64,000 bases of DNA. Origin: Podarcis gaigeae (Eukaryota). The DNA is taken from NCBI GenBank assembly GCA_964106915.2, contig OZ066926.1; one strand, given 5' to 3'. A program made the translations under genes and the position numbers. The notes under the pieces were generated by a model, which saw only the letters and a list, made by a program, of their open reading frames with translations, was not told where the DNA came from and did not search any database. Positions within the stretch are counted from its first letter, which is position 1. Each line of letters opens with the position of its first letter. Below are positions 15,524-64,000 of the stretch, piece after piece.

Positions 15524-20736
<5,213 letters not shown>

Positions 20737-32019: not shown

Positions 32020-35000
32020 TCAGATTGTTACATGGATGGGGCTCTGGAGGTCATCATCAAGGTTCTCCATGTCAGGCATGTTTGGCAGGTCCGCTCCCCC
32101 GTTGGACTCTCTCAAGTGGATCCTCTGGTGGTAGATCATGCTGTGCCTTCGCCGGAACCTCACCCCACACTCCCCACACTGGTATGGTCTCTCCCCGGTG
32201 TGGATTCTCAGGTGGCGCGTCAAGTGAGACTGCCGGCCGAACCTCTTCCCGCACTCGACACATGGGTAGGGCCTCTCCCCGGTGTGTGTGATCCGGTGGC
32301 GGGTCAGGTGAGACTGCCGGGTGAACGTTTTCCCACACTCGGCGCAGGGGTAGACCTTGCTCCCCAGGTGGGTCTTCTGGTGCCTGGTGAGCCCGTACAG
32401 GTCGTGGAATATCTTCCCGCACTCCATGCACTGGTAGGACTCCTTCTCAGTGTGGGTTCGCTGGTGGGCGGCCAGCTCCGACGGCCAGATGAACCCTTTG
32501 CCGCACTCGGTGCAGAAATAGCGCTTCTCCCCCGTGTGGATTCTCTGGTGCGTGGCAAGTTCGGACGGCCACCGGAACGCCTTGCCGCACTCCCCGCAGA
32601 CGTGGCGCTTCTCAGCCACGTGGCCTCCCAGGTAGGCGCCCAGAGGGGGCAGCTGGCCGTTGCCGTTCCTGCAGTCGGCGGCCAGCGGGGAGTTGTCGCC
32701 GGTGTGCATTCTCTGGTGCGCCGCCAGCTCCGACGGCCACTGGAACCCTTTCCCGCACTCGGCGCAGAGGTAGTGTTTGTTTTTGTTGTGGGTTTTCTGG
32801 TGTGTGGCCAGCTCCGACGGCCACCGGAACCCTTTCCCGCACTCGGGGCAGAGGTGGGGCTTCTTGACGGTGTGCGGCTTGGCGTAGTCGGCAGCCGGAG
32901 GGGTCTTCTCGCCAGTGAAAAGGCTCTGGTGCATCGTGAATTCCGGCGGCCACTGGAACAGCGCCTCAGAGTCCATGCCGTAGTGCGGCTGTTCGCCTGC
33001 ATGGATCCTCTGGTGGATGGCGAGCTCCGTTGACCACCGGAACCTCTTGCCACACTCCGTGCAAAGGTGGCACTCCTCGCCCATGTGCGTCTTCTGGTGC
33101 CTGGTGAGGTGCGAGGAACGGCCAAACTGCTTCCCACACTCGGCACAGTGGTAGGACTTTGGCCTGGTGTGAACTTTCTGGTGCAAGGCCAGCTCGGATT
33201 GGCACCGGAACCGCTTCCCGCACTCAATGCAGGGGTGGCGTTTCTCTCTCACTCGGATCCGCTTTGGGTTCAGGTGCTGCACCATCCCGTTGAGCCTTTC
33301 TCCAAATTCAAACTGGGGATCTGCTCTGCTGGGAGTCCTGGCACCTGGTTTGGGTGGTGGTGGTGGGGGGAAGGCAAGAGAAAATTCACAAATTTCATAG
33401 GTATGAATTCTAGAGCTGTCACTCAATTAAAGCAACGATAATTGATCAATGCATGTGTTTTAGATAGAGGTTTAAGCCCTGAAGTTCTGTTCACTATTAT
33501 CTGGCAGCAAGTCCCACTGAATACCATCGCACCTTGGTTCGTAATCCATTCCGGAACATTCAAAAACCAAGGCGCGGCTTTCAATTGGCTGCAGGGGCTT
33601 CCTGCACTCAATCGGATGCCGCAGAAGCAACGTCGGATGTTCGGGTTCCAAAGAACGTTTGCAAACCGGAACATTTACTTCCGGGTTTGCGGTGCTCGGG
33701 AGCCAAAATGTACACGTACCAAGGCGTTCGAAAACCAAGGTACGACTGTACAGGGGGATTTACTTCAGAGCAAACATGAATAAGATTGCCCTGTAACTGG
33801 ATTAAGTCAGCATACAAAAAAGAGGGGAAAAGAGGATAGATAAATAATGCTAATTGCTTCAACATGATTTGTGTGTTTTTCACAGCAAGCACCACCTTGG
33901 AAGAGACGTTTCCCCTTCTCTCTCCAACATTAGAAAATGAATCTTCTAAGATGCTGCTTGCCACCTGCAGGACCCACCTGAGCCCCCTTCATCGGCTGAA
34001 GAATCCCACGTTGCTTCGGTGTCAGAAGAACCTGTGCAGGGAAAGAAACGAGTCAGGTCCGACTGTGACATGCCCTCCGTCACACGCATCCACACAGTAT
34101 AACAGGATGTTTTGGACAGAGTACTGATATGCCTTCATCTGGATACGTTTATCCCACAAGTGCCCCAGAACTACAGAAGAAATTCATTGAAACAGGTCTA
34201 CAGTACAGACTGACACCTGGAGAGGATCTCTAATGCACCTGAGGCAAGGGACCTTGAGAACTGTGTTTGTCTGTATGGCCGTGAAAAGTAGAGAAGAGTC
34301 TGAATTTGATATCCCGCTTTATCACTACCCTAAGGAGTCTCAAAGCGGCTAACATTCTCCTTTCCCTTCCTGCCCCACAACAAACACTCTGTGAGGTGAG
34401 TGGGGCTGAGAGACTTCAGAGAAGTGTGACTGGCCCAAGGTCACCCAGCAGCTTCATGTGGAGGAGCGGGGAAGCGAACCCGGTTCACCAGATTACGAGT
34501 CTACCGCTCTTAACCACTACACCACACTGGCTCTCACTTTCAAGTAGAAAGTATACTACATGTGTTACTACTGTGTCATTTTTACAGAGACAAATAAGAC
34601 CCAGACTTATTTGTCCCTAGGCTGTTTCCTTCCCAGAAAGGTCTTCAAGTGTTATATAATACAATCTTTCTGGTTGTAGATACACAGCCTCATAGAAGTG
34701 AACCAGTTGCAAAATGTGCAAAAGCTATAGAGATCCATATGCAGCTTTCCAAGAATTGCTGTGGGGTCCTGCTTTCAATGTTGACGTTTGTTTAAACATC
34801 TAGCACTGAAAAGTGTGCTATTAGCATGCTTTCTCGTATCTTTTGTGTTTCTTTTCTACCAGTTGTATAGAATCATATATTTGTTTTTGGAATTTGAAGG
34901 TCTGTGGGCTACTAAAAAAACTTTACTGGAGTTCAATTAAGGCCCAAAGACCTAGATCAGGTAGGAAGGTATAACAACAAACTTGCTCGAACCAGAAACT

Positions 35001-38665: not shown

Positions 38666-41600
38666 GCAATGAAAAGCTTAGTGGAAGAGCTCCCTGGCAT
38701 CTTGATTGAAAAAAAAACCAAACCTCATAGCAGGTGATGGAGAAGAGACCTGTCACCTGAGACCCCAGAGAGCCTCTCTGCTAAGTCACAGGTGACAATA
38801 CTGGGCTACAGTGACAAGTATTCTGGCCACAGTGCATAACAGTTTCCTATGTCCCAAACCATCTCCACATTTTAATTACACCAAAGGGCAGAAATTAAAG
38901 CAACCAAGCTATTGCTCTGTTTCAATTACCAAGCGTTTTGGCTCATTTCAAAAACTCGGCTCCATGTTTTGATGCAGCTAATGCGGAAGAAGCCACTGCC
39001 TTGGCAATTTTACTGTGCAATCCTATACAACAGGATTGGGGCAACTGTGGCAGGGGCGTCATGAGGACGTCAAGCGACTGATAGGCGTGTGGTCTCCCCC
39101 ACCTGACCTATGAGGTGAAGGGAAGGGTCTGCTTCACCTGTGCATTCCCTGCGGAGAATATGCTGGAGAAAACAGCAGGATAGAACCATGCCCCTTGCCT
39201 ATCAGCTGACATCACCCAGGTGGGAGGAAATGGCCTCATTGGCCAGTGGCCTGGAGGTTCCCCACACCCGCTAAACGTGTCTGCTCAACCTCACTGAATT
39301 CGAATAGGGCTCCCTAAATTTATTTATAAGCATTTCTAAACTGCTTAATATTTAAAAATCTCTAGGCAGTATGCAAATACAAAACATTAAAAAAAACAGT
39401 ATCCAAAAAAGAAATATGCAACATAAAAAGCTGTAAAACTGTAGTATTATAAGAACAGGAATTTGGTCATAGGAAGATCCAATCCGATGGGTCAGAGAAA
39501 GCCTGAGCAAAAAAGGCACATCTTCTTTACAAGACACCTGAAGCAGATGACAGGTGATGCCTCACAAGTGGCAGAGGGAAGGATATTCCCCAGTGCAGGG
39601 GCAATGGTTGAAAAAGCTCATTTTCAGGTCGCTGCCCTGTGATCTTTCATAAGGTGAATGTAGAATTACAGACTTAGAATCTGAAGGCCTGGATCCTGGG
39701 CATTATCAGGGCCTCATCCTGTATGAACCTATCCAAAGTATTAAGTTCAGCTGACAAAATGCTGCCGATGGGTCCAAATTATCCAGAAACTAAACCAGTT
39801 TACCCACAAGGCAGAAGTTTTTTGGTGACTGCTTCAAAACGCCCTTCCACAGGCTAAATGTTTTACTCCTTCCTCCCTCCTGGCATTCCAGAAGTAAATA
39901 AAAGCTTTGGGGACTTTGCTGTGCTTTGGGGACTTAGCACAAAATACATACTCCCATTGTTTGATTGTTTTATTATAGGAGCTTTCAGCCCAAACACTGA
40001 GGTCCAGCTCCGAGGGCCTTCTGGTGGTTCCCTCACTGTGAGACGTGAAGTTAAAGGAAAACAGGCAGATGGCCTTCTTGGTGGTGGCATCTGCTCTGCG
40101 GAATGCCATCCCGTCAGATGTCAAGGAAATAAATACTATACAACTTTTAGAAGACATCTGAAGGCAGCCCCTTATAAGAAAGTTTTTAATGTTTAATGTT
40201 TTATTATGTTTTTATATTCGCTGGAAGCCACACAGAGTAGCTTGGGCAACCTGTTCAGATAGGCAGGGTACAAATAATAAAATTGTTGTTGTTGTTTTAA
40301 GTAGTTTTATACTATTTATATCTTTTTTAAAATGTTTGCGAGGCTGATTGTACACGATTTTGAGAGCCTTAGCTGTAAAACAAATATGTCATCTTTAAAC
40401 AGATATATTATCTTATGCAAACTGCTGAGGTTTTTCTTATCAAGTGCTATATAAATCTTTTTGTATAAATAAACAAAATAACCATTAGCCACAGCAATAA
40501 CAACATTGTAAAGGCAGCCCATGCCCCAAGGACAAAACATGCCCATCACACCTGCCCCCCATCCGTTGCTAGCACCCCACCGCCATTTCCTTCCCATCTC
40601 CGCCATAGTTATGGGCCTATCTCAGCAGGTCAGCCCTCACAAAGAAACTTGTCCCATCCGCAAGCCACAAGATTGTCCTTGGGGGTGGCGTATGGGATGA
40701 GAAAGGGGGTGGGGGACGAAAACCATCTCACCTCCTCTTCTGCTCTCTCTGCCTCTTGCTGCTTCGACAGGAACTCCTCTGCCAGGGCCACGGCCCGTGC
40801 GCAAGTGTCCGGGCTGCATTCCCACACGCGGCTCCGAATCCCCGGAGGGAGGACCGCCAGGAACTGCTCCAGGATCAGGACGTCCAGAATCTGCTCCTTG
40901 GTGCGGTTCTTCGGCTTCAGCCAGTGGTTGCAAAGCTCCCAGAGCTGACCGCAAGCCTTCCGCGGCCCCTCCGTCTCTTGGTAGCAGAACTGCCGGAAAC
41001 GCCGGCGGGCTGTCTCTAGGGTGAAGCCACCCACTCCTGAGGTGGACGTCCGCGTCTTCCCGATGCTCCCTCGGTCTGCGTTGCCTGGGGTACTGGGCTG
41101 GGTTTCTTGCTGGCTCTCCTCTGCGTATGGAGCTGTCCATGGGGAGGAGGCAGGGTTCTCTGCTGGCTCTAATGCTGTTGTAGAGAAGGCCCCTGACTCA
41201 ATGTTTATGGGTGCTGCCTCAGTCGCTGGAGAAGCATCTTGCGTTGGTGGCGGTGGCGGCGGCGGCGGCGGCTGCACAGTTGCAGGAGGCGGAGCTCGTG
41301 GGGCCTGAGACACCTCCTCCCACTGGACTTCCCAGCGCTGAGGCTGTGGGGCTTCTTCTAGGGCCTCTGGCTCAGCAGCAAGTGGCACTTCCAAGCCCAG
41401 AAGTTCCTCCACAGTCCCAGTGCACACCACAAGTAGGGAGTCATCTCCTTCCTCTGCTCCCACAGCCTCTCGTACAGGCCCCGTTGGATNNNNNNNNNNN
41501 NNNNNNNNNNNNNNNNNNNNNNNNNNNNNNNNNNNNNNNNNNNNNNNNNNNNNNNNNNNNNNNNNNNNNNNNNNNNNNNNNNNNNNNNNNNNNNNNNNNN

Positions 41601-41778
41601 NNNNNNNNNNNNNNNNNNNNNNNNNNNNNNNNNCTTCCACCACGACTTCCGCCTCCGCTTCCGGCTCCTCCTCCTCTTCTTCCTCCTCCTCTTCGATCGT
41701 GATTTCCGGATAGACCCCCTGCTCAAGCAGCACTTTAAAATGGAGATCCAGCTCTCCCGATCCCTGCTCAGGCTCCAT
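32020..41778 (-). CDS. SCAN + degenerate KRAB + C2H2 zinc-finger protein (gene Z1), about 850 aa, 11 intact fingers
   Basis: Phase-compatible exons 41778-40732 (Glu/Pro-rich, spans the N gap, SCAN ETARRRFRQFCYQETEGPRKACGQLWELCNHWLKP...ILEQFL), 35730-35604 (127 nt KRAB-A-like LFEEVVVNF...LLG), 34031-33978 ([11 protein letters not shown]), 33344-32020 (finger array). Start codon choice (41778 vs 41862) is uncertain. Confidence 0.88.
33522..33750. mobile_element. Tc1/mariner MITE, second subfamily
   Basis: Ends CCAAGGTACGACTGTA; related to 36045-36259 and 62110-62333. Confidence 0.7.
34290..34535 (-). mobile_element. tRNA-derived SINE (Squam3-like)
   Basis: Minus strand begins GAGAGCCAGTGTGGTGTAGTGGTTAAGAGCGGTAGACTCGTAATCTGGTGAACCGGGTTCGC (A and B boxes). 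Confidence 0.75.
35438..35574. mobile_element. palindromic MITE (CCCTCCAGATGTTTT...ACTACAACTCCCATGATCCC family)
   Basis: Fold-back structure; related copies at about 5485-5595, 7080-7215, 43395-43530 and 52867-52995. Confidence 0.75.
36045..36259. mobile_element. Tc1/mariner MITE, second subfamily
   Basis: TACAGTCGTACCTT...AAGGTACGACTGTA. Confidence 0.8.
36494..36546. repeat. compound (AAT)n(GAT)n microsatellite
   Basis: Direct reading. Confidence 0.95.
39975..40285 (+). mobile_element. L2 LINE 3' end fragment
   Basis: GGCCTTCTTGGTGGTGGCATCTGCTCTGCGGAATGCC...TTTAGAAGACATCTGAAGGCAGCCC...GGGTACAAATAATAAA. Confidence 0.65.
41490..41633. other. assembly gap (144 N) inside the Z1 SCAN exon
   Basis: Run of N. 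Confidence 1.
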
Positions 41779-42955
41779 TTTGTCTTCCAAAAGGTAGACC
41801 GACTTCTCCCAGTTGTAGACGGAGGTCTGGCCACCAAGGCCCCAAGTCTCACACGCAAACATGGCGGGAAACTAGGAAGTGTTTACAGGGGCGTTGTCTC
41901 CCTGAAAGTGGGTGGGGGAAGAAAAAATGGAAGGCTATCACCCAGTTTTAAGAAACTTGAGCCATTTAATCAATTGAAAGTCATTTTCCTGAATTGGTTA
42001 TATGAATAAGAGCAAGAGTTCTGAAGAAAAACAAAATACTTTTGTTTTTAGGTGATGCAATGCACATGCCGGGGGGGGGGGCATCTCAGGTAAAACATTC
42101 CCTTCTGTGTGTGAGGGAAGAGGTACCTTCTAAGAAGGTACCAGCTGCCCAGTTTTTGTATTTATAATTATATAGTTTTGCATATAATAATAATAATAAT
42201 AATAATAATCTGCCACTTCACTAATGCGGGCTACTTCAAAACATATAACTGATTAATGAAACTGATTCATGAATGAAACATTGCAGTCCAATAAAAAGGG
42301 GGGGGGGACAGAGGAAGGGGGGAAGTTGAGGGGGAAAACAGCCGGTGTTGAGGAACATCTTCCTTACACAGCCACCCCTAACTCCACTGCAAAAAGCCCA
42401 GGGAGAAATTGTTAGGGTGGCCATCAGTAAAATCTCCTTCCAGAAGAGAGATACACAGCCACTGTCTCTCTGCTCTCATGGCTCTCTCACTCTGAGCCAT
42501 CCTGCACATTTAGAATCTTCACCCAGCCCACACACTGCAACTCTTCAAGAGGCAGGTAGGAGATCATACTATGGAGTGATTCCCCAAGGCCAAAAACACC
42601 ATGTCCCTGGATACTGGAATTTTAGACAGAAGAGTTATTCTAGCCCAGCCTTCTCTGTTCTGTTCCTAGGGAATTTCTTATTACGGTGCACATTCAAACA
42701 TGCAACACCTCCACCCCCAGCATTCCACAATGGGACAGCCTTCGCAGGGTCTGTTTTTCTGAACATGTAGATCAGGTTCTGTGTCTTCTGGCCAGATGGA
42801 TAAGAGAACGGCAAGTACATCTACTACAACACAACACAATGTATTTTCCCAGCTTGGAAATACGGTGCAGCACTCTAGAGGCTATAGCAAGGCCAGGAAG
42901 TGCCATTCTTTTGCCATTTAGCTACTTGCCCAACGAAAGCAGCAGACTTCATGGC

Positions 42956-50480: not shown

Positions 50481-51699
50481 TAAAAAGAGGTCCCGGGAAG
50501 ATGGAGAACGCAGCACCCATAGGGTGCTTTAGCCAGAGAGAGAAAAGGGAAATAGATGTAAATGCATAAATATCAAGGGGGGCTTAGCAGCTACCCCTGC
50601 GATTATTAATTTCACAAGCATACATGCTTTCTAATCAAGATTGTTACCCTCCACCATCCCACCAGCCCACCCCCGCAGACCAAAATCTCCTTTAGCTGCT
50701 TGAGTTTCCAACCTGTGCAGCTGAAAGGAATGTGCTTTGCTTTCAGAAAAGTTGTGCAATTCATGCATACAAATGGGCAGGAGAACAGACCTTTTATCAG
50801 CTGGATAATAAACAGACACCCCTTGGATATCTCTACCATGGACAGAACTGAGTGCAATCCTGAGTCAATTCTGGACTCATAAATACCCCATCCCTTGCAT
50901 GAGCCATTTCTGGAAACAGTTTGAAGCCAGGTTAAATGCCCTGGATTCCCCCCAAACAACTCTGAAAAGTACTGGTTATGCAAAGAGTGTTGAGGGCATT
51001 ATTAGAAGTCTCTGATTCCTTCCAAGAACTACAATACCAAAAGACCCTTGGGTGGGAACCCTGAGATTAAACAGGTTTCATTTAAAAGCATAGTTTGAGA
51101 ATGTTGAGAGAGGGCCAACCCTGGTTCACTAGCCTCTCCCTGATCTACACCAATATTTCTTTTTTTAACCATATCTCATCATTTCAGGCACAGTTGGTTC
51201 TCATCGCTCAGAGATGTCACATTACTCTGCAGATCATCATATCCTAATTAGGGCACTCACTTGATTCAAGAAATGCTAGTTGATCCATTGTAGCTGTTTA
51301 AATTGATCGAATCCGCACCTTCATAAAACAACAGCCCTGGAGGAAAAAACTATTTTGCTCTTCATTTTTCAGTAATGCACACACAGGCGCTATCTTAAAG
51401 AGACGTACCCTGCTACGTAAGACCAAAAAGGAAAATGTCTTTCCTGAGATGGTTGCCTGCCAGCACAAATGCTGTTTGTAAATCCTTGCCTTAAAAAAAT
51501 GATTTTTTTAAAAGGAAAAAGAAGCTGCTGCCTGATTCATTCACACTTGTTATCGTACAAAATAATTTGTAATTGTCTATTTAAACGATGTTGCTGTTAC
51601 AATTCTTCCACGGCTGCCTCATGTAGTCACTGATGGATGTGAGAAAGGGAGTTTTGGGGAGCAAGAATGCAGGTTTGAAGAGAGTGTGAAGGTGGTACC

Positions 51700-54635
51700 A
51701 TGAGAGAGAAGATGGCCACGGAGGAGGGGGCCGAGGCAGACCTGGGGGCTGTGACCCAAGCGTCACTGAGCCTGCAAGGCATTAAAATGGAAGAGCAAGC
51801 ACCAGCAGCCCTCAGAATGGGACAAGCCCTAGAAAAAGCAGGACAGGCTTCTTGTGTCCTTCATGCCAGGAAGCTCTTGCAATGGAAGGTGTCTCCACTG
51901 GTCAAGGAGGAGCCAGATGCAGGAAGGATCCAGCACTGGGAGATCCAAGGCCCAGAAACAGAACATCCCCTTTCTTTTGGATGGGGGAGAACAAGGCCCA
52001 CCGAGGCTGAACCTTGGGATGACATCCTGGCACTTTTCGCTTCCTTTGAGCACATGGCCTACGCCTGCCGGTGGCCGAGGGAAGAGTTGGTGGCCCGGCT
52101 TTTGCCAGCCCTGGGCGGGGAGGCCCAAGAGGCTTACCTCAGTTTGGACACTAGTGACAGAAGGGACTATGGGAAAGTGAAGGCAGCCATCTTGAAGAGG
52201 GAACCCGTGGCGTCGGAGAAGCGGAGGAGGCACTTCCGGCAGTTCCAGTACCAGGAGTCAAGGGGGCCGAGGGACGCTTGCCGGCGGCTCTGGGAGCTCT
52301 GCCGTCGTTGGCTGAGGCCGGAGAGCCGAAGCAAAGAGCAGATCCTGGAGCTGCTGATCCTGGAGCAATTCCTGACCATCTTGCCAGAGGAGGTCCGGAG
52401 CCAAGTTTGGGAGCAAGTCCCAGAAACCTGTGCCCGGGCGGTGAACCTGGCTGAGAATTTTTTGGCAAGGCAGCAGGAGGCTGAGAGGCAGGTACTCCAG
52501 GTGAGAGGATCCTGCAGTTCCTTCTTGATCCCTGGGGTCCCAAGTTGGTCTAACCATGCGGGAAGTTTTCCTTAGGTGCTTATGCGAGGGGAGACAAAGC
52601 ACCTCCCTCCTCCTGATCACCATCTAATAAAATCCTTCTCACGTAAAATGTCTTCATAAAGGCAAAGATGGTCAAAGCTGCTTTATGAGCTGTGAAAATC
52701 TGGTGCACTAAGGCTTGGAATAATATGTTTAATTTGTATAGACTTTAGCTGTATGGAGAACGATGTAAGTGCTTTGCCCAAAGTTAGAAGCAAAGAATGT
52801 CCGTGTCCAAAGACATAAAATCTAAACAGACAGGACACAAAAGGCAGGGAAGAGAATTAGGAGATCAGGAGTGGGGAACCTGCTGCCCCCCAGATGTTGA
52901 TGGACTCTGGCTCCCATCATCCCTGACTACTGGCCATGCCAGCTGGGGCTGATGGGAGCTGGAGTCTAACATTGTCTGGAGGACCACTGGTTCCCCTTTC
53001 TCAGCTTACCCCTTGTGATGATGGTAAAAGTGAAAAATCCTACAGCTTCCTAATGTTTTTAAACCTTCCTGACTGTAAGGAGTCCCAGCTGAGGCTCCGT
53101 GTCATGGACTGGCTGGATACAGAGGAGGAGTGGGAGGCACTAGTTGGGAACCCCCAAGGAAAGAAGGCTCAGAGTCAGGGGACTGGTGTTGGGATGATGA
53201 TGGGAGATCAGAGGGAGAAGAGGAACAGGCTGGGAGGAGGCAGTGTCAGAAGCTGAAGAGGTAACAGGGTTTAGTGAGTGGGGAGAATCTGTGGCAGAGA
53301 GAAGTCTAGAAGCAAAAGCAAGAGAGGAGGGAGGCAGCGATAAAGAAGTCAGGGGGTCTTCCCCTCCTGCTGTGACCAGTTCCCTTCCCCTCAGGTATCC
53401 CAGGACCAGAAGGGATTATGAAGAGAGAGGAGCAGAAACAGGCGTGCCAGCGGAGTCTCAGGTTGCTTGGGAAGGACCCAGAGAGAAGGAGATTTTGGCA
53501 TCTTATGAGTAGGAGCAAAACCTACTCAGAAGAGTTGCTGTGCTCATTAGGCCTGGCTTCCCTGAGCTTATAATTCGTATGATTTATTGCTGGCTGGCAT
53601 CCTGACATTCTGACATCAAATCATGCTGACTTGTGAGAGTCCCCAGTTCTGTCTCAAACCCAGTGAAGTCCTTTGCTCCCCCAAGCTGTTCCAGGGAGTT
53701 TGTGCCAGGATATCGAATGCTCATTCCTACCAGCCCTGTTCCTGCATTGAGCGGGACCTTCCCTGCAATTTCAGGTGTCAGGGTCATTCGAGGACACCCT
53801 CGTGAGTTCCCCAAGGGCAGAGCTGGCTCCGTCAGATACAAGGCAGAGCCTCCTCAGGAAGGCCAAGCAGGCAGGTGGTGGAGGAGATGCCAGCTCTCTG
53901 GGTGAGTAGTTGCTGCATTTTTGAAATTCAAGTTTACATAGGCGTTGCCATCTTCACGGGCGCATAGCTTGTACTGTTGTTTTAACTTAGAGTGTTGAGT
54001 TTAACTTAGAGTATTGTTCTAAGTGTTAAGTAGCATGTGATTGGTGTGCCACCCCCCACAAAACCTAGAACTACCCCTACATTTGCCTCCAGCTCTCCCC
54101 TTGAGCTCTCCCCAGTTCTGTAAAATTAGTGTGCAGCAACCCTGTTCACAGGATTTTGTATGGGGCCATCCATACCAGCTGTTTCTGCCATGTCTTGGAA
54201 ACAGCAGTACTATGTTCCAGTTCATGTGATGTCCCTTATTGGAGTTCCACTTCCTGGTTTTCAGGCCAGGGCTGATATCATTCCTTGTTCTCTTCAGCCA
54301 GTTTTGGCCAAACCACACTGCGTTTCTTTTCTGATGCAGGTTCTTCTGACACAGAGGCAACATGGGACTCACTGGCAGACGAAGGGGGCCGTGGCGAATG
54401 TGGGAAGCGAGACCCTTCTGCAAGAGCAGGTGGGCAGGGTACTAGACTGCTGTTATATACAGGAGACATCCAGATCCTTACAGGGGAGGCTAACGGCTTG
54501 AGAATTATGCAGCACAAAGTTTTACCTTTGTCATGAACTTGCTAGGCAGTCTTAGGCAAAAGCCACTCTCCGTTTCAGATCCTTTCCCCCATGCTCAACA
54601 CAGGCAAAATAATGTTGAGATTCCTGCATTGCGGC

Positions 54636-54673
<38 letters not shown>

Positions 54674-56127
54674 ACTGGATGACCCTTGGAACCCTTTCCA
54701 ATTCTATGTTTCTATGATTTTTACAGAGTTGCTATAAGAAAGCCAGTATGGTTAGTGTTGGATTAGGACCTGGGAGACCCAGGTTCAGATCCAGATGCAG
54801 CCAAAAAGCTTACAGGGTGACCTTGTGCCAGTCACACTCATTCTCTCTCCTCTATTCCCCTTTATAATAATAAATTTTATTTATACCCCGCCCTCCCCAG
54901 CTAAGACTGGGCTCAGGGCGGCTAACACCAGATATAAAAACAATTGATTAAAATACAACTTAAAAACAAGATTAAAATACAACATTAAGATGCAGCCTCA
55001 TTTCAGTAGAAACGCAAATCAAAAACTTTTTGGGGAAGAAAACATCCCCAAGCTACAATTAAAAAGGTAAAGGTAAAGGTACCCCTGCCCGTACGGGCCA
55101 GTCTTGACAGACTCTGGGGTTGTGCGCCCATCTCACTCAAGAGGCTAGGGGCCAGCGCTGTCCGGAGACACTTCCGGGTCACGTGGCCAGCGTGACAAAG
55201 CTGCATCTGAGAGCTACAATTCCCTGCGAAGAGGGATTGACTATTAAACCACTCTGGGAATTGAGAGTATTGCGAAGGGAATAGAATAGGTTTCCCAACA
55301 CCTCTTAGCACCCTGAATAAACTGCCCTTCCCATAATTATTTATGGGAAGGCATGCCCATTTAAAAAGGAATCACTGCGCTTGAGATGTAGGTTGTGAAT
55401 GTGGGAGGAAAAAAACAAGAATTAATTGACTTGGCCAGTCATTGTCTTTGATGCTACCTGCTATTGGGCTCCCTACTTTCTGCCTTGCCGGTCCAAATGG
55501 GCACCAGCTGTTCCTTACGTTAAACATTTATTTTCTTTTTATTCATTAGTGCATTTACACCCCACTCAGGGTTGGCTGGCTGCAAATACTTGGCTGTATC
55601 GTTTAGAGCCTTCCTCCTGCCAGCTTCAGGCCTTCAGTCTTCTTTTCTCTCCGGCAGCTGGTAGCTGTGGAGCGGCGTCCGGATTCTCTCCCCTCCCTGC
55701 ACTGGCCAGAAATGAAGAGTATGGAGAGAGGCCTGTGGGAGCTGAGGGGCTCCCAGCACACCTGGGCGCCGCCAGCAGGGACAGCGCGTACCTGTGTTCC
55801 CAGTGCGGGAAAGGGTTTCGTTGGCCGTCGGCGCTGGCCGTCCACCAGAGGACCCACACGGGGGAGAAGCGGCACCGCTGCGCCGAGTGCGGGAAGCGCT
55901 TTGGCCAGCGCGGCCATTTGACGGTACACCGGAGGATCCACTCGGGAGAGAAGCCGTACGAGTGTCCTCAGTGCGGGAAGCAGTTTGTCGACTCCTCTCA
56001 CCTCACCAAGCACCAGAGGACACACTTGGGGGACAGGCCCCACCACTGCGCTGAGTGCGGGCGAAGGTGTGCCAATAAACGCTCACTCGTGCAGCACCAG
56101 CGAATTCACAGCAGGGAGAAGTCCTAG
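51700..56127 (+). CDS. extended-SCAN + degenerate KRAB + 4 C2H2 zinc-finger protein (gene Z2), about 495 aa
   Basis: Phase-compatible exons 51700-52500 (capsid-like [32 protein letters not shown]...[12 protein letters not shown], then [38 protein letters not shown]...LEQFL), 53775-53901 (127 nt, SFED...SSLG), 54340-54429, 55658-56127 (4 fingers); AATAAA at 56899-56904. Confidence 0.9.
54638..54672. repeat. (GT)n microsatellite
   Basis: Direct reading; absent from the paralogous segment near 61870. Confidence 0.95.
55062..55210 (-). mobile_element. Sauria-type SINE, 3' fragment
   Basis: AAAGGTAAAGGTAAAGGTACCCCTG is the reverse complement of the tail. Confidence 0.8.
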
Positions 56128-57416: not shown

Positions 57417-58070
57417 TGTTAACGGAAAAATCCGAGGGCTCCCTTGGACAAAAACAAAGACACCAACCAGGATTACTTGGAGCAAAACAGCAGCCTGTAG
57501 GCTTGGCCTTTATTGATCTGTTGCAACAGGGTCTCCCCTCACCCGCAGAAGAGAGGAGGGACCCAGAAAAATGGCATGCAAGGCCTTATAAAGATTTTTG
57601 AAATTGCCACCCTGTAGATCAAGACCACCCCCAGAAACATCCTACATACATCACAGAAGGGGTGTAACCCAAGACCACCCCTCAGATACATCACACCTAC
57701 ATCACAGAAAAGGTGGTCTTAAAACAGAAATTTGAATGTTGCTTTCCTCCTCTCCTTGTTTATCTCCTGTCTGGCAGGTTATTTGATTGGATTGCCTGGG
57801 TAGCCTGGCCAGTCTTTTGTAAGGATAAATCCTTAGTTCCTGGGCCAGGTCACAGGCTCACACCCTATTCAAACACAGACATACCCTTAAGACAGGATTT
57901 GTGAAGGAAAAGACAATGGAGAGGCTTTTCCAGTTTGCAGAGAAAACATTTATTCAGTTTAGGAATCAAAATGGTTCCAGGTTGGCCTTCCTGTGCTGAT
58001 CTATGTATGTGCTTGGTTGGTGCACTTATGAACATTACTATATATCTAAGACAATAAAATTCCTATCACA
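57417..58070 (-). mobile_element. solo LTR inserted in the exon-2 donor of globin-like copy A
   Basis: TG...CA ends, 4-bp target duplication ACTT (57413-57416 and 58071-58074), internal TATA-like and AATAAA on the minus strand, homologous to the element at 47.5-48.1 kb. Confidence 0.88.
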
Positions 58071-58455
58071 ACTTGGAAGTTGACGGGGTCCATGAGCAGG
58101 TTCTGGACGGGCAGGGACGCTCAGGTCCTCGAGGGTGTCGACGATGGATGTTGTCCATGAGTCCGGCATCCTTGCGGATAAACCAAAGTAGTTTCTTTCC
58201 CTGCAGGCTGATGTAGCCAGAGAGGTGCTACGGTAGGAAGGGAGAAACAGTGTGGGCGGTGGGGTGCGTGGCTAAAAGCCCACAGGAGACGAGAGTAAAG
58301 AGGAGAAGGGTCACAACAGCGGCTTCGCCCCCATGAGTGGGTCCCTGCCCGACGAGGCGGGCTTACCTGGGCACGGCGTTGATGTCCCAGGAAAAGGACG
58401 GGATCTCGGCCCAAACGGGCTGCACGTAGCTCTGGCAGACTCCGCTCATCGCCAT
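58071..58455 (-). pseudogene. alpha-globin-derived pseudogene, copy A
   Basis: Exon 1 58455-58367 MAMSGVCQSYVQPVWAEIPSFSWDINAVP with phase-2 AG|GTAAG. Exon-2 relics in shifting frames: LLATHPTAHT, SGYISLQGKKLLWFIRKDAGLMDNI, VDTLEDLS, LPVQNLLMDPVNFQ. The donor is split by a solo LTR and its remainder (GTGAGT) lies at about 57409-57414. GATAAAA at 58501-58507. Confidence 0.85.
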
Positions 58456-59064
58456 CCTTGCACTTCAACCTCTTCAGCACCGTCTGAGACCGAGGAGCCC
58501 TTTTATCACTGCCAGCCCTACACCCGGACCAGCCAGAAAATGGGAAACCCCATTAAATTAATCAATATGAAATGTTTAATTGGATGGTTTTTATTTTTTT
58601 ATTTTGGATATGACGTGGCAAGATTTGATATGTTATTAATTGAGATGTTATTAATGAAAAATTAATAAAAATTTATTTATGTATTTATTTTTAAAGAAGC
58701 CAATGAGAATCTTTGTGTCCTCTCCTGGTGAGCCTCCAGCCTGGGTCCTGGGCATTGCCGGCTCAAAGGAAGCCCTTCTCAAGAAGCAAAATGGTGTTTC
58801 CTGCCATCTTGGGCCCCTCCAGGCCTGCAGGCTCCCCTGCTATAGAGAGATTCTCCCGTGGAAGGGACACTCCCGGGAGCTGGTGGACTCTCCTTCCTTG
58901 GAAGGTTTTAAGTAGAGGATGGATGGCCGTTTGCCAGGGACCATTTGATAACGGGGATTGGACTAGATGACTCTGAGTGTCCTTCCCAACTCCATTATTT
59001 CCCCGCACCCCCACCCCCTTCAGCCTAAATAGTCTCCAGGAGAGTAGTGAGAGCTAAAAGCAGG

Positions 59065-59070
59065 TTTATT
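59065..59070 (-). terminator. polyadenylation signal of globin-like copy B
   Basis: AATAAA about 75 nt after the ancestral KYR stop. Confidence 0.7.
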
Positions 59071-59201
59071 GGGCGGGGGGGGCGAGGGCGAGGCTGCCAC
59101 GTCCAGGAGGCACTTCTGCGGAGGGTGCGGCTGCTTCTCTGGCCTAGCGGTACTTGGAGGTCAGCATGACGGGGCGGCTGTCGATGGAGACGCTGGCGCT
59201 C

Positions 59202-59720
59202 TTATCTAGGAGCCCGGACGTTGACCGCCATTACCACCTGGATGTCTGGGCTCGGCAGCTGCGGGAAAAGCGAAGGCGGGGAGCGTTAGACGGAGAGGAC
59301 GGAGCGGCGCGAAGGGGCGAAGGAGGGACCCACGTGACGGGAAGAGAGAAAGACTCACCCTGGAGTTGACCGGGTCCGCGAGCAGGTTTTGGGCGGGCAG
59401 GGGGCTCGGGATGCCGAGGGCGCGGGCGACGGCTTTAATGGTGAGGCGGCAGAGTTCATCGAAAATGGACTTCTCTGGGTTCGAACTGACGGGGAGCCCG
59501 CTTCGGGAGGAGAGGGAGAAGAAGGTCAGTTTGCAGGAAAAGAGAGTAAAGAGAGTAAAGAGGAGAAGGGTCGGGCCATGGCCTCGACATCGGGAGAGGG
59601 TCCCTGCCCGACGGGGCGGGCTTACCTGGGCACAGCCCGGGCGCCGATGTCTGCGGAACGGGACGGGATCTCGGCCCAAACGGGCTGCACGTGGCTCTGG
59701 TTGACTCCGCTCAGCGCCAT
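59202..59720 (-). CDS. alpha-globin-derived 3-exon gene, copy B; predicted 97-aa heme-histidine-less mini-globin (could be a pseudogene)
   Basis: Exons 59720-59626 (95 nt, MALSGVNQSHVQPVWAEIPSRSADIGARAVP, Trp at residue 15, phase-2 intron), 59500-59359 (GLPVSSNPEKSIFDELCRLTIKAVARALGIPSPLPAQNLLADPVNSR, phase-0 intron), 59258-59202 (LPSPDIQVVMAVNVRAPR*). The ancestral ending VMLTSKYR* survives 1 nt out of frame to 59144. Globin origin is near certain; expression is unproven. Confidence 0.75.
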
Positions 59721-59764
59721 CCTGCCAGCTCAACCTCTTGGTGCCGTCGGAGCAGGGGCAGCCC

Positions 59765-59771
59765 TTTTATC
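59765..59771 (-). promoter_or_regulatory. GATAAAA TATA-position element of globin-like copy B
   Basis: GGGCGGGCGGTGATAAAAGGGC about 45 nt upstream of the ATG; same element in copies A and C. Confidence 0.65.
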
Positions 59772-60769
59772 ACCGCCCGCCCTGTCTCCCGGGTGGCGTC
59801 TCCCTCGGCCTCTGCCAGGGCGTCCTTGCCTCCCCCGGCCTGGCAAAGATCCGGGACGGGGCGCACGAGCCCTGGCAAGCGAGCATCCTCCTCGCAATTC
59901 CCGCTGCCTGCTGTCAGGCGGACACCATCGAGCATCTTCGCTGGACGCTCCCTGGGCGATGGTGACTCGGTAGTCCTGACACACACCCCCACACACACCC
60001 CGCGAGGTCGGCCAGTCAGTCTTCTTCCCCCATGGCTGCGCACTGCAGAGGGGCACGAGGGGAGGGGAGGAATGGCGCCTCCCAGAAAGCCGTGTACGGA
60101 GGTTCTCTCTCAGGTCCTCGCCTGCGGAGATGGGGGTGCAAGCTAGGACCCAAATCGAAGCAAATGGGTCGCTCTAACCCCGAAGCTAAAAGAAGAGGAG
60201 CGTGTGTGACCTTGCAGGCCATTTCTCCCCTTGTCCACGAAAGGCTGAGCATGGAAGCCAGGCAAGAAGACACCTGCAGAAGAGTCTCTTGGGAGGGCAG
60301 CTGAGCTGTGGGGGTAATGGGGGGCTGGTGCTCTATGCAGGCTTGCCATACTGGTGGAGGGAAGGAGAAGGAGAAGGCATGAGCACTTTGGGGCATCACA
60401 ATTTTGCATGACCCCCCGCCCAAAAAAACCAGGATGTCCCAGACTGTTGAGGGGTATGTGCCAGCCACATACTGACCCTCTAGGTGAGTTTTGCAGACTA
60501 CCAATTGGGAGCCGCTGATCTACAGTATTCCAAGTGTTTTTGCACCACAGGTTTGTAGAATGTCATTCTGGTAGCCAGAGTCTTGTTTTGAAATGCATTT
60601 TCAAGTGACCCCCACCCAGCATGGAATGGGCCTTTTTCACAGCTTCAGAACACAGGGTTGGCCTTTTCATCCAGCTCTCCACTACCATCTCAAGGTCTCG
60701 ATCCAGGTTGGCCACTGCCAGTTCAGACCATGAATATATATGTGTGGGGTTAAGATGTGCATTTTTTAA

Positions 60770-60975
60770 ATCACAGAATGGTAGAGTTGGAAGGGATCCC
60801 GAGGCTCATCGAGCCCAACCCCCAGCAATGAAGGAATCTCAGCTGAAGTATCCCAGACAGATGGCCAGCCAACCTCTGCTTTAAAATCTCCAAGGAAGGC
60901 GAGTCCACCACCTTCAGAGGGAGTCTGTCCCACCGTGAAACAGCTCTTGCTCTCAGAAAGTTATTCCAAGTGTTC
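60770..60975 (-). mobile_element. CR1 LINE 3' end fragment
   Basis: Minus-strand ORF NFLRARAVSRWDRLPLKVVDSPSLEILKQRL and tail TTCCAACTCTACCATTCTGTGATT. Confidence 0.8.
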
Positions 60976-61423
60976 ACAGCGCCCCCCCCAAGACAGCATT
61001 GCATGCGGCCTCAGCAACCTGAGCGCCCTGCTGGAGGAGGAGATGACCTTCTGAGGGAGTCTCTCTCCCTCCCCGTAGGGGGGCTCTGGAGGGGGCCTCC
61101 CTCCTTTCTTCCTTTGCACCCGCTCAATCCTCCCAGCCTAAAGTTCCCCACCTCTGCTTCTCCTGCAGGTGCTGGGTAATATCATCATGGTGATGGCCAC
61201 CTCAGAACCCAATTCCTAGGGACCGAGGTCCATTTGGGGTCCCCAATAAAGTACTGGAGGAGGCTGGGCCTTCCTTGTTCTCTTCAGCCAGTTTTGGCCA
61301 AACCACAGTGTGTTTCTTTTCTGATGCAGTTACAGATAGGTAGCCGTGTTGGTCTGCCATAGTCAAAACAAAATAAAAAAATTCCTTCCAGTAGCACCTT
61401 AAAGACCAACTAAGTTGTTCTAG

Positions 61424-61461
61424 GTATGAGCTTTCGTGTGCATGCACACTTCTTCAGATAC
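61424..61461 (-). ncRNA. minimal hammerhead ribozyme motif (inverted copy)
   Basis: Exact reverse complement of the 61469-61506 motif. Confidence 0.65.
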
Positions 61462-61468
61462 ACAGTGT

Positions 61469-61506
61469 GTATCTGAAGAAGTGTGCATGCACACGAAAGC
61501 TCATAC
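61469..61506 (+). ncRNA. minimal hammerhead ribozyme motif (Penelope-associated)
   Basis: GTAT CTGAAGA A GTGTG CATG CACAC GAAA GC TC ATAC: stem I, CUGANGA core, stem II, GAAA, palindromic AGCU helix III, CUC cleavage triplet. Confidence 0.65.
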
Positions 61507-62109
61507 CTAGAACAACTAGCTCATACCTAGAACAACTTAGTTGGTCTTTAAGGTGCTACTGGAAGGAATTTTTTGTTTTGTTTTTTTCTGATGCAGTTTC
61601 TTCTGACACAGAGGGGACATGGGACTCCCTGGCAGACGTGGGAAGCGAGACCCTTCTGCGGGGGCAGGTGGGCAGGGTACTAGACTGCTCTGATATACCA
61701 GAGACATCGAAATCCTTACAGGGGAAGCTGACACCCTCAGAATTATGCAGCACAAAGGTTTTACTTTTGTCATGAACTTGCTAGGCAGTCTCAGGCAAGC
61801 CACTCTCCATTTCAGCTCCTTTCTCCCATGTTCAACATGAGCAAAATAATGTTCGCATTCCTGCATTGTGAGGGTTGGACTGGATGCTCTTATTCAGTTA
61901 GTTAGCCTCTTTTGTCCACCATTTTGTCTCTATTGCAGTGGTTCTATGAGGTAGCAAGATGGCTGCCATTGCTACCTCCTATTTCCATAATAATTAATTT
62001 TTGTACCTCTTTGAACTGAATGGGTTGTTCCAGCTACTCTTGGTGACTTACTAAAGAATTACTGGGCGGATGCCATGACTGTTCAAGTGTTATAATAGTG
62101 TTTTGAATG

Positions 62110-62333
62110 TACAGCCGTACCTTGGTTTTCAAACAGCTTATTCCTTGAACGTTTTCGCTCCCAAACGTTGCAAATCTGGCAATGACTGTTCCGGTTTGCA
62201 AACTATTTTTGGAAGCTGAACGTCAGACGGGGCTTCCTGAAGCCAATTGGAAGCTGTGCTTTGGCTTCCAAAGGTTTTGGAAGTCAAACGGATTCTGGAA
62301 TGGATTCCATTCGACTTCCAAGATACAACTGTG
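62110..62333. mobile_element. Tc1/mariner MITE, second subfamily
   Basis: TACAGCCGTACCTTGG...CCAAGATACAACTGTG. Confidence 0.7.
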
Positions 62334-62972
62334 CAGAGCCGGTGTGGTGAAGTTGGTGTTATGTGGTTTTAAGACATTTGGAAATAATAGAGAAAATTCA
62401 GGAACAAAAATATAAGACTATCTCCAGACCAGCCAGAAAATGGGAAGCCCCATTCAATCAATCAATATGAAATGTTTAATTGTATTGTTTTTATTTTTTG
62501 TTTTTATTTTGGATATGACATGGCAATATTTCATATGTTCTTAATTGAGATGTTATTAATGAAAAATTAATAAAAAATATTTATTTATTTATTTATATTA
62601 AAAGAGGCCAATGAGAATCCTTGTCTCCTCTCCTGATGAGCCTCCAGCCTGGGTCCTGGGCATTGCGGCTCAAAGGAAGCCCTTCTCAAGAAGCAAAATG
62701 GTGTTTTCTGCCATCCTGGGCCCCTCCAGGCCTGCAGGCTCCCCTGCTATAGAGAGATTCCCCCGTGGAAGGGACACTCCCGGGAGCTGGTGGACTCTCC
62801 TTCCTTAGAAGGTTTTAAGCAGAGGATGGGTGGCCGCCTGCCAGGGACGATTTGATTCCGGGGATTGGACTAGATGACTCTGAGTGTCCTTCCCAACTCC
62901 ATTATTTCCCCGCACCCCCCACCCCGTTCAGCCTAAATAGACTCCGGGAGAGCAGTGAGACCTTAAAGCAGG

Positions 62973-62978
62973 TTTATT
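62973..62978 (-). terminator. polyadenylation signal of globin-like copy C
   Basis: AATAAA at the homologous position. Confidence 0.7.
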
Positions 62979-63066
62979 GGGGGGGGGGGCGAGGGCGAGG
63001 CTGCCACGTCCAGGCGGCACTTCTGCGGAGGGCGCCGGCTGCTTCTTTCGCCTAGCGTTATATGGA

Positions 63067-63592
63067 TCACAGCCCATTGGCGATGCAAGCAGCCGAGCAG
63101 AAGATGCCCATTTCCAGCTGGATGTCTGGGAACGGCACCTGCAGGAGGGGCGAAGGCGGGGAGCGTTAGAGAGAACAGAGAGACGCGAAGGGGCGAAGGA
63201 GGGACCCACGTCTGGAGCCCCCGCCCGACGGGGAGGGAGAGAGACTCACCCCGGAGTTGACGGGGTCCGCGAGCAGAAGGTTCTGGGCGGGCAGGGTGGT
63301 CAGGTTGCTGGGATCCCAGGTGAAGCTGCAGATTATCTCGAAGAGGTACTTGGTCATGTCCTCCGCTAAGGGGCGGGTTCTACGGGAGGAGGGGGAGAAG
63401 AAGGTCAGCTTGCGGGAAAGGAGAGAGTAAAGAGGAGAAGGGTCGGGCCATGGCCTCGCCATCGGGAGAGGGTCCCTGCCCCACGGGGCGGGCTTACCTG
63501 GGCACAGCCTGGGCGCGGATGTCTGCGGAACGGGACGGGATCTCGGCCCAAACGGGCTGCACGTGGCTCTGGCTGACTCCGCTCAGCGCCAT
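63067..63592 (-). CDS. alpha-globin-derived 3-exon gene, copy C; predicted 98-aa heme-histidine-less mini-globin (could be a pseudogene)
   Basis: Exons 63592-63498 (95 nt, MALSGVSQSHVQPVWAEIPSRSADIRAQAVP), 63379-63250 (TRPLAEDMTKYLFEIICSFTWDPSNLTTLPAQNLLLADPVNSG), 63138-63067 (VPFPDIQLEMGIFCSAACIANGL*); all GT-AG with frame preserved. Confidence 0.75.
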
Positions 63593-63636
63593 CCTGCCAG
63601 CTCAACCTCTTGGTGCCGTCGGAGCAGGGGCAGCCC

Positions 63637-63643
63637 TTTTATC
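63637..63643 (-). promoter_or_regulatory. GATAAAA TATA-position element of globin-like copy C
   Basis: GGGCGGGCGATGATAAAAGGGC about 45 nt upstream of the ATG. Confidence 0.65.
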
Positions 63644-64000
63644 ATCGCCCGCCCTGTCTCCCGGGTGGCGTCTCCCTCGGCCTCTGCCAGCGCGTCCCTG
63701 CCTCCCCCGGCCTCGGCAAAGATCCGGGACGGGGCGCACGAGCCCTGGGAAGTGAGCATCCTCCTCGCAATTGCCGCTGCCTGCTGCCAGACGGACACCG
63801 TCGAGCATCTTCGCTGGACGCTCCCTGGGCGATGATGACTCGCTAGTCCAGACACGCCCCCCCCCCCCCCCAGGTCGGCCAGTCAGTCTTCTTCCCCCAT
63901 TGCTGTGCACGGCAGAGGGGCACGAGGGGAAGGGAGGAATGGGGCCTCCCAGAAAGCCGTGTGCGGAGGTTCTCTCTCAGGTCCTCGCCTGCGGGTGTGG

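Follow-up and report, generated by a model that had tools for sequence, protein, structure and literature searches.

The alpha-globin gene is a model of a conservative gene. Its duplicates without a clear oxygen role, namely the mammalian theta and mu globins and the alpha pseudogenes, sit within the cluster, are single-copy and keep the globin frame. Variation of sauropsid alpha-globins is described, in the relevant part of PMC5786229, as largely gene loss with pseudogenes being rare, and the lacertid part of PMC11117339 treats only alpha-A and alpha-D. Shifts of splice sites into coding sequence are also on record: in the corresponding sections of PMC3538075, 56 of 85 new human splice sites move the border of an exon and 50 of these leave the frame intact, and intronisation in SMOX removes 53 residues of the catalytic domain. 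One-sided and multiple-of-three shifts are treated as steps of intron sliding, with tandem duplication as an alternative, in part of PMC2891723. Here we describe a family of alpha-globin derivatives in Podarcis gaigeae. The 64,000-nucleotide (nt) stretch of contig OZ066926.1 that was analysed (the window, whose positions are used below for copies A–C) ends inside a tandem array of this family, with copies A (58455-58070), B (59720-59202) and C (63592-63067) all on the minus strand. B and C are members of a tandem, alpha-A-derived family without either haem histidine, and they likely encode small intracellular proteins, probably of the germ line, with a variable helix under diversifying selection.

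The family has in common with squamate alpha-A globin (HBA) an exon 1 of 95 nt ending in phase 2, both intron donors, the position of intron 2, the TATA-like box and the poly-A signal; its introns are ~80% identical to those of alpha-A in this genome. It differs in that residues 32–49 (numbered throughout as in the human alpha chain) are spliced out, His58 and His87 are absent, exon 3 is frameshifted or diverged, the frames have 83–113 rather than 142 codons, and the genes, 13 in number, lie on another contig. Unlike theta, mu and the alpha pseudogenes, the lizard family has left the cluster, expanded and lost fold-defining residues. The change is of the same kind as the published cases of intronisation and sliding, a splice-site shift with the frame kept, but here only the acceptor moved and no new intron was made. 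Moreover, the shifted form is apparently no minor isoform but the main one, and the shift has become fixed throughout a multiplied family in which old-acceptor copies persist alongside. Conotoxins, major histocompatibility complex (MHC) genes and reproductive proteins are hypervariable families with conserved flanks. They likewise have introns and an exon 1 more conserved than one coding segment, birth-and-death evolution and more nonsynonymous than synonymous divergence (dN > dS); the lizard family differs from them in being mostly acidic, haemoglobin-derived and, as judged by eye, without an obvious signal peptide. No description of the array or family was found in the literature searched (open-access PMC and bioRxiv). 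The splice shift is a known kind of event in a well-preserved state; the haem-less, fast-evolving family in which it occurs appears to be undescribed. If our reading is true, this would be a rare, young case of a haemoglobin gene taking an unrelated job, its present annotation being just 'uncharacterized'. Its array shows a single splice-site shift in several states side by side, making the move of a constitutive acceptor into coding sequence testable. As the family does not match the Pfam model, automatic globin surveys miss it.

When the genome was searched at the DNA level with copy C, 25 matches were obtained, which together with 100 kb of adjacent sequence yielded 13 copies (A–M) at 22.068-22.160 Mb of contig C25. 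The genome also holds two fragments that consist of exon 3 alone; C33 carries a retrocopy and C26 two canonical alpha-A genes. The Pfam globin search of the genome found 11 loci, none of them on C25, and canonical alpha-A is the best parent match among them (local exon-1 score 109–115 versus 33–61). Nucleotide homology and a common three-exon structure establish descent from alpha-globin, and from sequence comparison the two C26 alpha-A genes are clearly the parents. Upstream DNA is also common to the array and alpha-A, the TATA-like box and up to ~900 nt being retained, which argues that the founder was a genomic copy and not a retrocopy. Nine of the 13 copies have three exons and open frames of 83–113 codons through the new acceptor; their exon 2 lengths (142, 130, 130, 142, 130, 151, 142, 127 and 118 nt) all leave a remainder of one when divided by three.

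In the canonical alpha-A gene of the same genome (L029), intron 1 has 107 nt and exon 2 has 205 nt, with codons that map without gaps onto residues 32–98. Nucleotides 53–54 of this exon are the AG of a serine codon, which corresponds to Ser49. The same AG is the new intron-1 acceptor of B and C, 54 nt inside the canonical exon 2, and because the shift amounts to 18 codons the reading frame is kept. Residues 32–49 drop out of the mRNA, that is, in textbook helix nomenclature, the end of the B helix, the C helix and most of the CD corner including Phe CD1. The original prediction had claimed precisely this: an acceptor moved onto an in-frame AGN codon, with the frame intact, the C helix and CD corner removed and exon 2 shortened from 205 to 142 nt (B) and 130 nt (C). 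All of these claims were borne out, as were the coordinates given for A, B and C when the window was re-read, except that 9 nt (B) and 21 nt (C) of the shortening are net in-frame deletions in the retained exon. That the new acceptor lies within the ancestral exon is also evident from an exon 2 of 205 − 54 = 151 nt in copy H and in the Podarcis protein models P0005 and P0010. We are highly confident that the shift is real and used.

In copy B, a TATA-like box (59771-59763) precedes exon 1 (95 nt, 59626..59720), which is alpha-globin-type and ends in phase 2, as in A and C. Intron 1 (125 nt, 59501..59625) has CAA at the old acceptor site (59533-59531), and its last 30 nt (59530-59501), on former exon-2 ground, include a CTGAC at 59529-59525 and end at 59501 with the new acceptor, a weak AAG. 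A second candidate acceptor in frame, CAG ending at 59486, lies 15 nt downstream. Exon 2 (142 nt, 59500-59359) is open, hypervariable in its 5' part and conserved in its 3' part, where Pro replaces the proximal His87. Intron 2 (59358-59259) is followed by an exon 3 with 18 codons and an early stop (59202..59258), the old globin stop remaining downstream at 59146-59144, and by AATAAA at 59070-59065. Copy C is built alike: TATA-like box at 63643-63635, exon 1 of 95 nt at 63498..63592, and intron 1 of 118 nt at 63380..63497, with CAA at the old site (63412-63410), CTGAC at 63408-63404, the last 30 nt on former exon-2 ground at 63409-63380, and the new acceptor TAG ending at 63380. Its exon 2 (130 nt, 63379-63250) is open, with a hypervariable 5' part and Pro at the His87 position; intron 2 spans 63249-63139, the coding part of exon 3 has 23 codons (63067..63138), and AATAAA is at 62978-62973. 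In copy J (L043:5220-5263), the CTGAC-like motif at the new site lacks the branch-point A, and another CTGAC is found further upstream in the old intron.

The old CAG has become CAA in B, C, D, E, G, H, J, K and M, followed by 30 nt (35 in K) up to TAG or AAG. Compared with the canonical exon, the stretch after CAA in these copies consists of 4 nt, a 24-nt deletion and 26 nt lining up with codons 41–49; of the old 54 nt, just 30 persist as intron in B and C. A G follows CAA in all shifted copies but B, creating an AAG one base late and out of frame, and in copy C the old site is weakened, rather than erased, by the CAG-to-CAA change. The old acceptor had been described as destroyed in every copy. 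This applies to A (TGG) and B, and to C with that qualification, but in copies I and L the old site still has its AG and runs on into the old exon start, and the C33 retrocopy also derives from a gene with the old acceptor. Copy M (L045:5360-5700) contains a 97-nt tandem duplication that extends across the old site and the new acceptor and 33 nt into exon 2; its frame is open via the second acceptor only (118-nt exon). In copy I (L043:2500-2930), the old acceptor is kept as TAG and exon 2 is down to 73 nt, in frame, leaving a frame of 72 codons.

Use of the new acceptor was assessed in sequencing runs; the 17 runs listed are all from a related organism, which gives no evidence on expression in this species, and 11 were guessed to be RNA; five RNA-guessed runs and one DNA-like run were examined as contigs. 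In an X6 contig (depth 86), exon 1 ends exactly at donor 63498 and continues with 27 bases that open like exon 2 of E and M after the new acceptor and encode the peptide of P0007. An X5 contig joins the donor to the conserved end of exon 2 over 75 other letters, giving an exon 2 of 130 nt, the new-acceptor length, to which use of the old site would add 30. X2 has the joint between the donor and the 3' part of exon 2 at depth 27. Contigs from X1, X2 and X5 are spliced across intron 2; the X1 joint, at copy C, has GT..AG ends, and an X2 contig carries the exon 2/exon 3 joint in the copy B region. X5 has a poly-T end, and probable-RNA contigs break at the copy C donor 63498. The new acceptor is thus used by homologous family members in the relative's probable RNA, and from these homologues we infer its use in B and C themselves. 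An exon-2 profile search returned nine unnamed proteins, each of them from either Podarcis muralis or P. lilfordi. These models, which may or may not rest on RNA, are independent of the gene models made in this analysis; in eight of the nine the new site begins exon 2, a length of 151 nt being implied for two of these, and P0009 reads through the intron. No listed probable-RNA contig in X6, X2 or X7 covers the body of copy A (58148-58411) or the variable exon 2 of B, which does not count as a sign of silence, such contigs dropping rare forms. Contig depth was tried as a measure of expression and rejected: the depths of the shared exon-2 end of the family and of another alpha-globin (~500/300 in X6, ~50/1600 in X2, ~0-3/480 in X7) do not run in parallel, but contig depth cannot rank genes.

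Copy A is a pseudogene. Its exon 1 (89 nt, phase 2, 58367..58455) lies behind a TATA-like box at 58507-58499. TGG stands at the old acceptor position (58282-58280), so that the first old-exon base is 58279, and the new AG ends at 58228. Between the dead acceptor and the new TAG, the former start of exon 2 (58228..58279) keeps 52 of the canonical 54 nt, including the piece that copies B–M deleted. The exon-2 remnant that follows (58070..58227) has frameshifts and ends abruptly at ~58070 at high-copy repeat DNA (repeat depth below 58080); there is no intron 2 or exon 3, and no convincing exon-3 match occurs in window positions 1-58070. Read in the old frame, 58155-58227 resembles the E helix without gaps, Gln standing in place of the distal His. 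A piece homologous to this stretch forms the third exon of the P. lilfordi model P0003, probably through a gene-model fusion. The retrocopy on C33 (~41.7435 Mb; L027:1385-2210) is the processed copy of an old-acceptor member: it lacks introns, has a poly-A and a 13-nt target-site duplication, and preserves a product spliced at the old site, together with a separate 35-codon deletion in exon 2. A repeat interrupts it at L027:1871-2119. The P. lilfordi model P0001 (98 aa, 84% identical) is open through the original globin C-terminus, and the retrocopy may therefore be a live retrogene in that species.

Aligned to the canonical exon 2, the intron ends match it better than chance. The first 30 nt of copy A after the old acceptor reach a score not attained by any of 5000 shuffles. 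In B, C and E, the 26-nt tract agrees without gaps with exon-2 nt 29–54 at 14 of 26 positions (p ~0.007-0.008), and in H at 13 of 26 (p 0.025). The prediction had further held that the old codons themselves supply the branch point and pyrimidine tract. Here the evidence is ambiguous, and it is the parent's own intron-1 end that speaks against an origin from exon bases in place: it matches the tract at 19 of 26 positions without gaps (paralogue introns at no more than 16), with alignment scores of 19–25 for the canonical intron end versus 13–16 for the exon. The new 3' splice site might have come from a short duplication or template switch that overwrote the first part of exon 2 with the end of intron 1. 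The result would be identical, a 54-nt shift with the frame kept, without being point-mutational intronisation. The last 24 nt of the copy A segment, which match B, C, E and H (none of 5000 shuffles), are no closer to the exon than chance allows (491 of 5000), and in copy M this very acceptor was duplicated in tandem over 97 nt. We nevertheless regard such an event as unlikely. Any two stretches of pyrimidine tract plus YAG are expected to resemble each other, copy A retains 52 of the 54 nt between the sites with the first 30 plainly exonic, and the tract aligns codon for codon without gaps. The bases 3' of the new AG resemble the Ser-Pro-Gly codons in A, E and M (9 of 13 bases in E and M), and the exon of H has exactly 151 nt. 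A mixed origin is possible, with the first half exonic and the last 12–14 nt converted. As for the stepwise conversion in which copy A would preserve the intermediate on the line to B–M, this claim is not supported. Copy A does lie, by its sequence, structurally in between the two states, combining the old exon start with the new TAG and a tract common with B–M. However, its old acceptor died by a different change, TGG being one change from the TAG of copy I and unlike the CAA of B–M. It also has its own frameshifts, an in-frame stop in the old frame, neither intron 2 nor exon 3, and no supported basal position in the exon-1/intron-1 tree. A true intermediate is therefore quite improbable, and copy A is a broken side branch, a fossil that retains the 24-nt piece deleted elsewhere, rather than a proven intermediate.

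The splice shift is only one step in the making of a fast-evolving haem-less family, which the original prediction missed. The proximal His F8 (His87) is Pro in A, B, C, D, E, G, H, J, K and the retrocopy, and M and I are also without His. At the distal position E7 (His58), there is no His in the variable segment of B–M, and A has Gln. Phe CD1 (Phe43) and the C helix lie upstream of the used acceptor and so outside the mRNA. The predicted products of the family cannot be haemoglobin chains. None of 10 family queries matched Pfam Globin (PF00042), which the canonical exon 2 matches at E 1.8e-20; matches to DUF4702, HTH_Tnp_ISL3 and DUF3612 were below the cut-off. Weak alpha-chain matches of P0005 in the PDB (best E 0.018) and globin clusters in the ESM Atlas (0.90) leave only a faint globin trace. 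Matches to Evasin in the PDB (E 1.5-1.7) were treated as chance. Protein searches of 5.8 billion and 1.84 billion sequences returned members from Podarcis only (10 and 5 matches), plus one weak match, the 1735-aa P0012 (E 1.6e-4), likewise treated as chance; this restriction refers to annotated proteins, unannotated copies in other lacertids being possible. The products have a conserved, proline-rich N-terminus and linker and two variable helices, and are mostly acidic (net −7 to +2), features that, with no obvious signal peptide, fit small intracellular binding proteins. The idea of cationic antimicrobial peptides was rejected, since most products are acidic.

Variation was compared over eight distinct copies (28 pairs). 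Mean identity is 0.92 in exon 1, 0.88-0.92 in the introns and 0.73 in exon 3, and only 0.62 in the 5' part of exon 2. In this variable, in-frame helix part, the proportion of nonsynonymous differences (pN) is 0.438 and that of synonymous ones (pS) is 0.218, giving a dN/dS of ~2.6; exon 1 has a pN of 0.09 and a pS of 0.10, and the introns diverge by 0.087. Variable types are shared across species: J and P0002 are identical at 29 of 32 positions, H and P0005 at 26 of 34, E and P0007 at 22 of 31, and other copies at no more than 14 with any of these models. It is quite probable that the genes are under selection as proteins.

Several observations count against this reading and have to be set beside it. 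The RNA nature of the runs was guessed, the organism is a relative, and the evidence consists of contigs; unspliced intron-1 contigs are also present (depth 6-15), and none of the listed contigs carries the variable exon 2 of B or C itself across the junction, so the transcript check upholds the new site for family members in the relative but not for B and C directly. The dN/dS of ~2.6, obtained by pairwise counting, is rough, the segment being saturated, hard to align and GC-biased in its codons and the 28 pairs not independent, and pS in the variable part is 2.5 times the intron value. The hydrophobic moment of the variable helix beats shuffles (p <0.05) in two of eight copies (canonical E helix, 0.11). 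The AlphaFold model (9-row alignment) is weak, with a predicted local distance difference test (pLDDT) of 54, a predicted template modelling score (pTM) of 0.20 and two helices only, at 37-52 and 83-101, where the two variable segments also lie. The exon-1/intron-1 tree (copy D left out as a near-duplicate of C) is weakly supported and nests I and L among new-acceptor copies, so that the order of events is not proven, and the nesting suggests gene conversion. In a rival reading the array would be made of transcribed but functionless pseudogenes, conversion homogenising the flanks and old, unconverted exon-2 segments merely looking selected. Four of the 13 copies are broken or shrunken (A, F and L, and I with its 72-codon frame), the lack of stops alone is not significant in simulation (P 0.07-0.25), pN is about equal to pS in exon 1, and confident fold and Pfam match are both wanting. 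Nevertheless, all nine new-acceptor exon-2 lengths are in frame, with four different lengths besides 151, which random indels would produce about once in 81 (hand count), pN is twice pS in the variable part, and types J, H and E keep open frames in other Podarcis models, these being pre-selected for open frames. We thus consider a functionless array rather improbable. Red-cell proteins made from the inherited globin promoter, acting as haem-less decoys or modulators against blood parasites or haemoglobin-chain partners, are a little less so, though still unlikely. The TATA-like box and upstream DNA kept from alpha-A and the retained F-G segment around a conserved DP.N motif would suit them, and the blood parasites that infect wall lizards could plausibly be such a changing target. 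By contrast, the retrocopy starts ~130 nt upstream of the globin TATA box and X2 and X6 contigs also extend far upstream of it, pointing to another start site, and with exon 3 (the G and H helices) frameshifted or diverged, globin contacts are unlikely to be intact. A retrocopy implies germ-line transcription of a parent copy, and together with these upstream-reaching contigs this makes us favour a germ-line arms-race role over either alternative, albeit tentatively, since the parent used the old acceptor and does not show germ-line expression of new-acceptor copies.

Under the favoured germ-line reading, we infer the order of steps as follows, along with translation, tissue and partner. A genomic alpha-A copy with its promoter and introns would have left the globin cluster on C26 for a zinc-finger gene region on C25. 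His87 would have changed to Pro before the splice change, since the old-acceptor retrocopy and the new-acceptor copies share it, freeing the haem pocket. A pyrimidine tract and YAG may then have formed over old codons 41–49 at a time when the old acceptor was still functional, with both sites in frame. Loss of the old site would have followed and happened twice, as CAA in B–M and as TGG in A; that the new site arose before the old one was lost is the simplest reading. In the B–M line 24 nt would have been deleted, and the number of genes would have grown. Gene conversion likely held exon 1 and the introns uniform among the copies, whereas exon 3 and the segment derived from the E helix drifted apart. 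The variable helix might bind a changing partner, in a germ-line role under diversifying selection. In its fullest form, this history would make the array a genus-restricted family of haem-less binding proteins in an arms race, its expanded clade founded by an exon-to-intron conversion that excised a corner of the haem pocket, with old-acceptor, both-site and new-acceptor copies all readable in one array; taken as a whole, we find it conceivable but slightly on the doubtful side.

Further observations concern the array and its surroundings. Copies C and D are 99% identical and stem from a recent 5.1-kb tandem duplication (window 62930-63660; L037:4020-4760). In copy E (L037:9800-9865), a short tandem duplication replaces the TATA-like box; its frame is open and its counterpart is spliced in the relative. 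Copy F (L038, G000:C25:22088340-22088760) has lost intron 1 and exon 2, with an exon 1 containing a stop fused to the middle of intron 2, and the same joint is seen in the DNA-like run X12. The array is flanked by C2H2 zinc-finger and SCAN-like frames and a sulfotransferase-like fragment, all read by eye; this set lies at 32020-33426, 40630-41871, 51679-52575, 55426-56127 and 17045-17548. The canonical alpha cluster (G000:C26:53.04-53.50 Mb; L002, L003, L007, L008, L010, L011) is spread over 450 kb and comprises two alpha-A genes, two identical-looking alpha-D-like exons, a divergent alpha gene and a globin-Y-like gene, exceeding the usual squamate pair of alpha genes.

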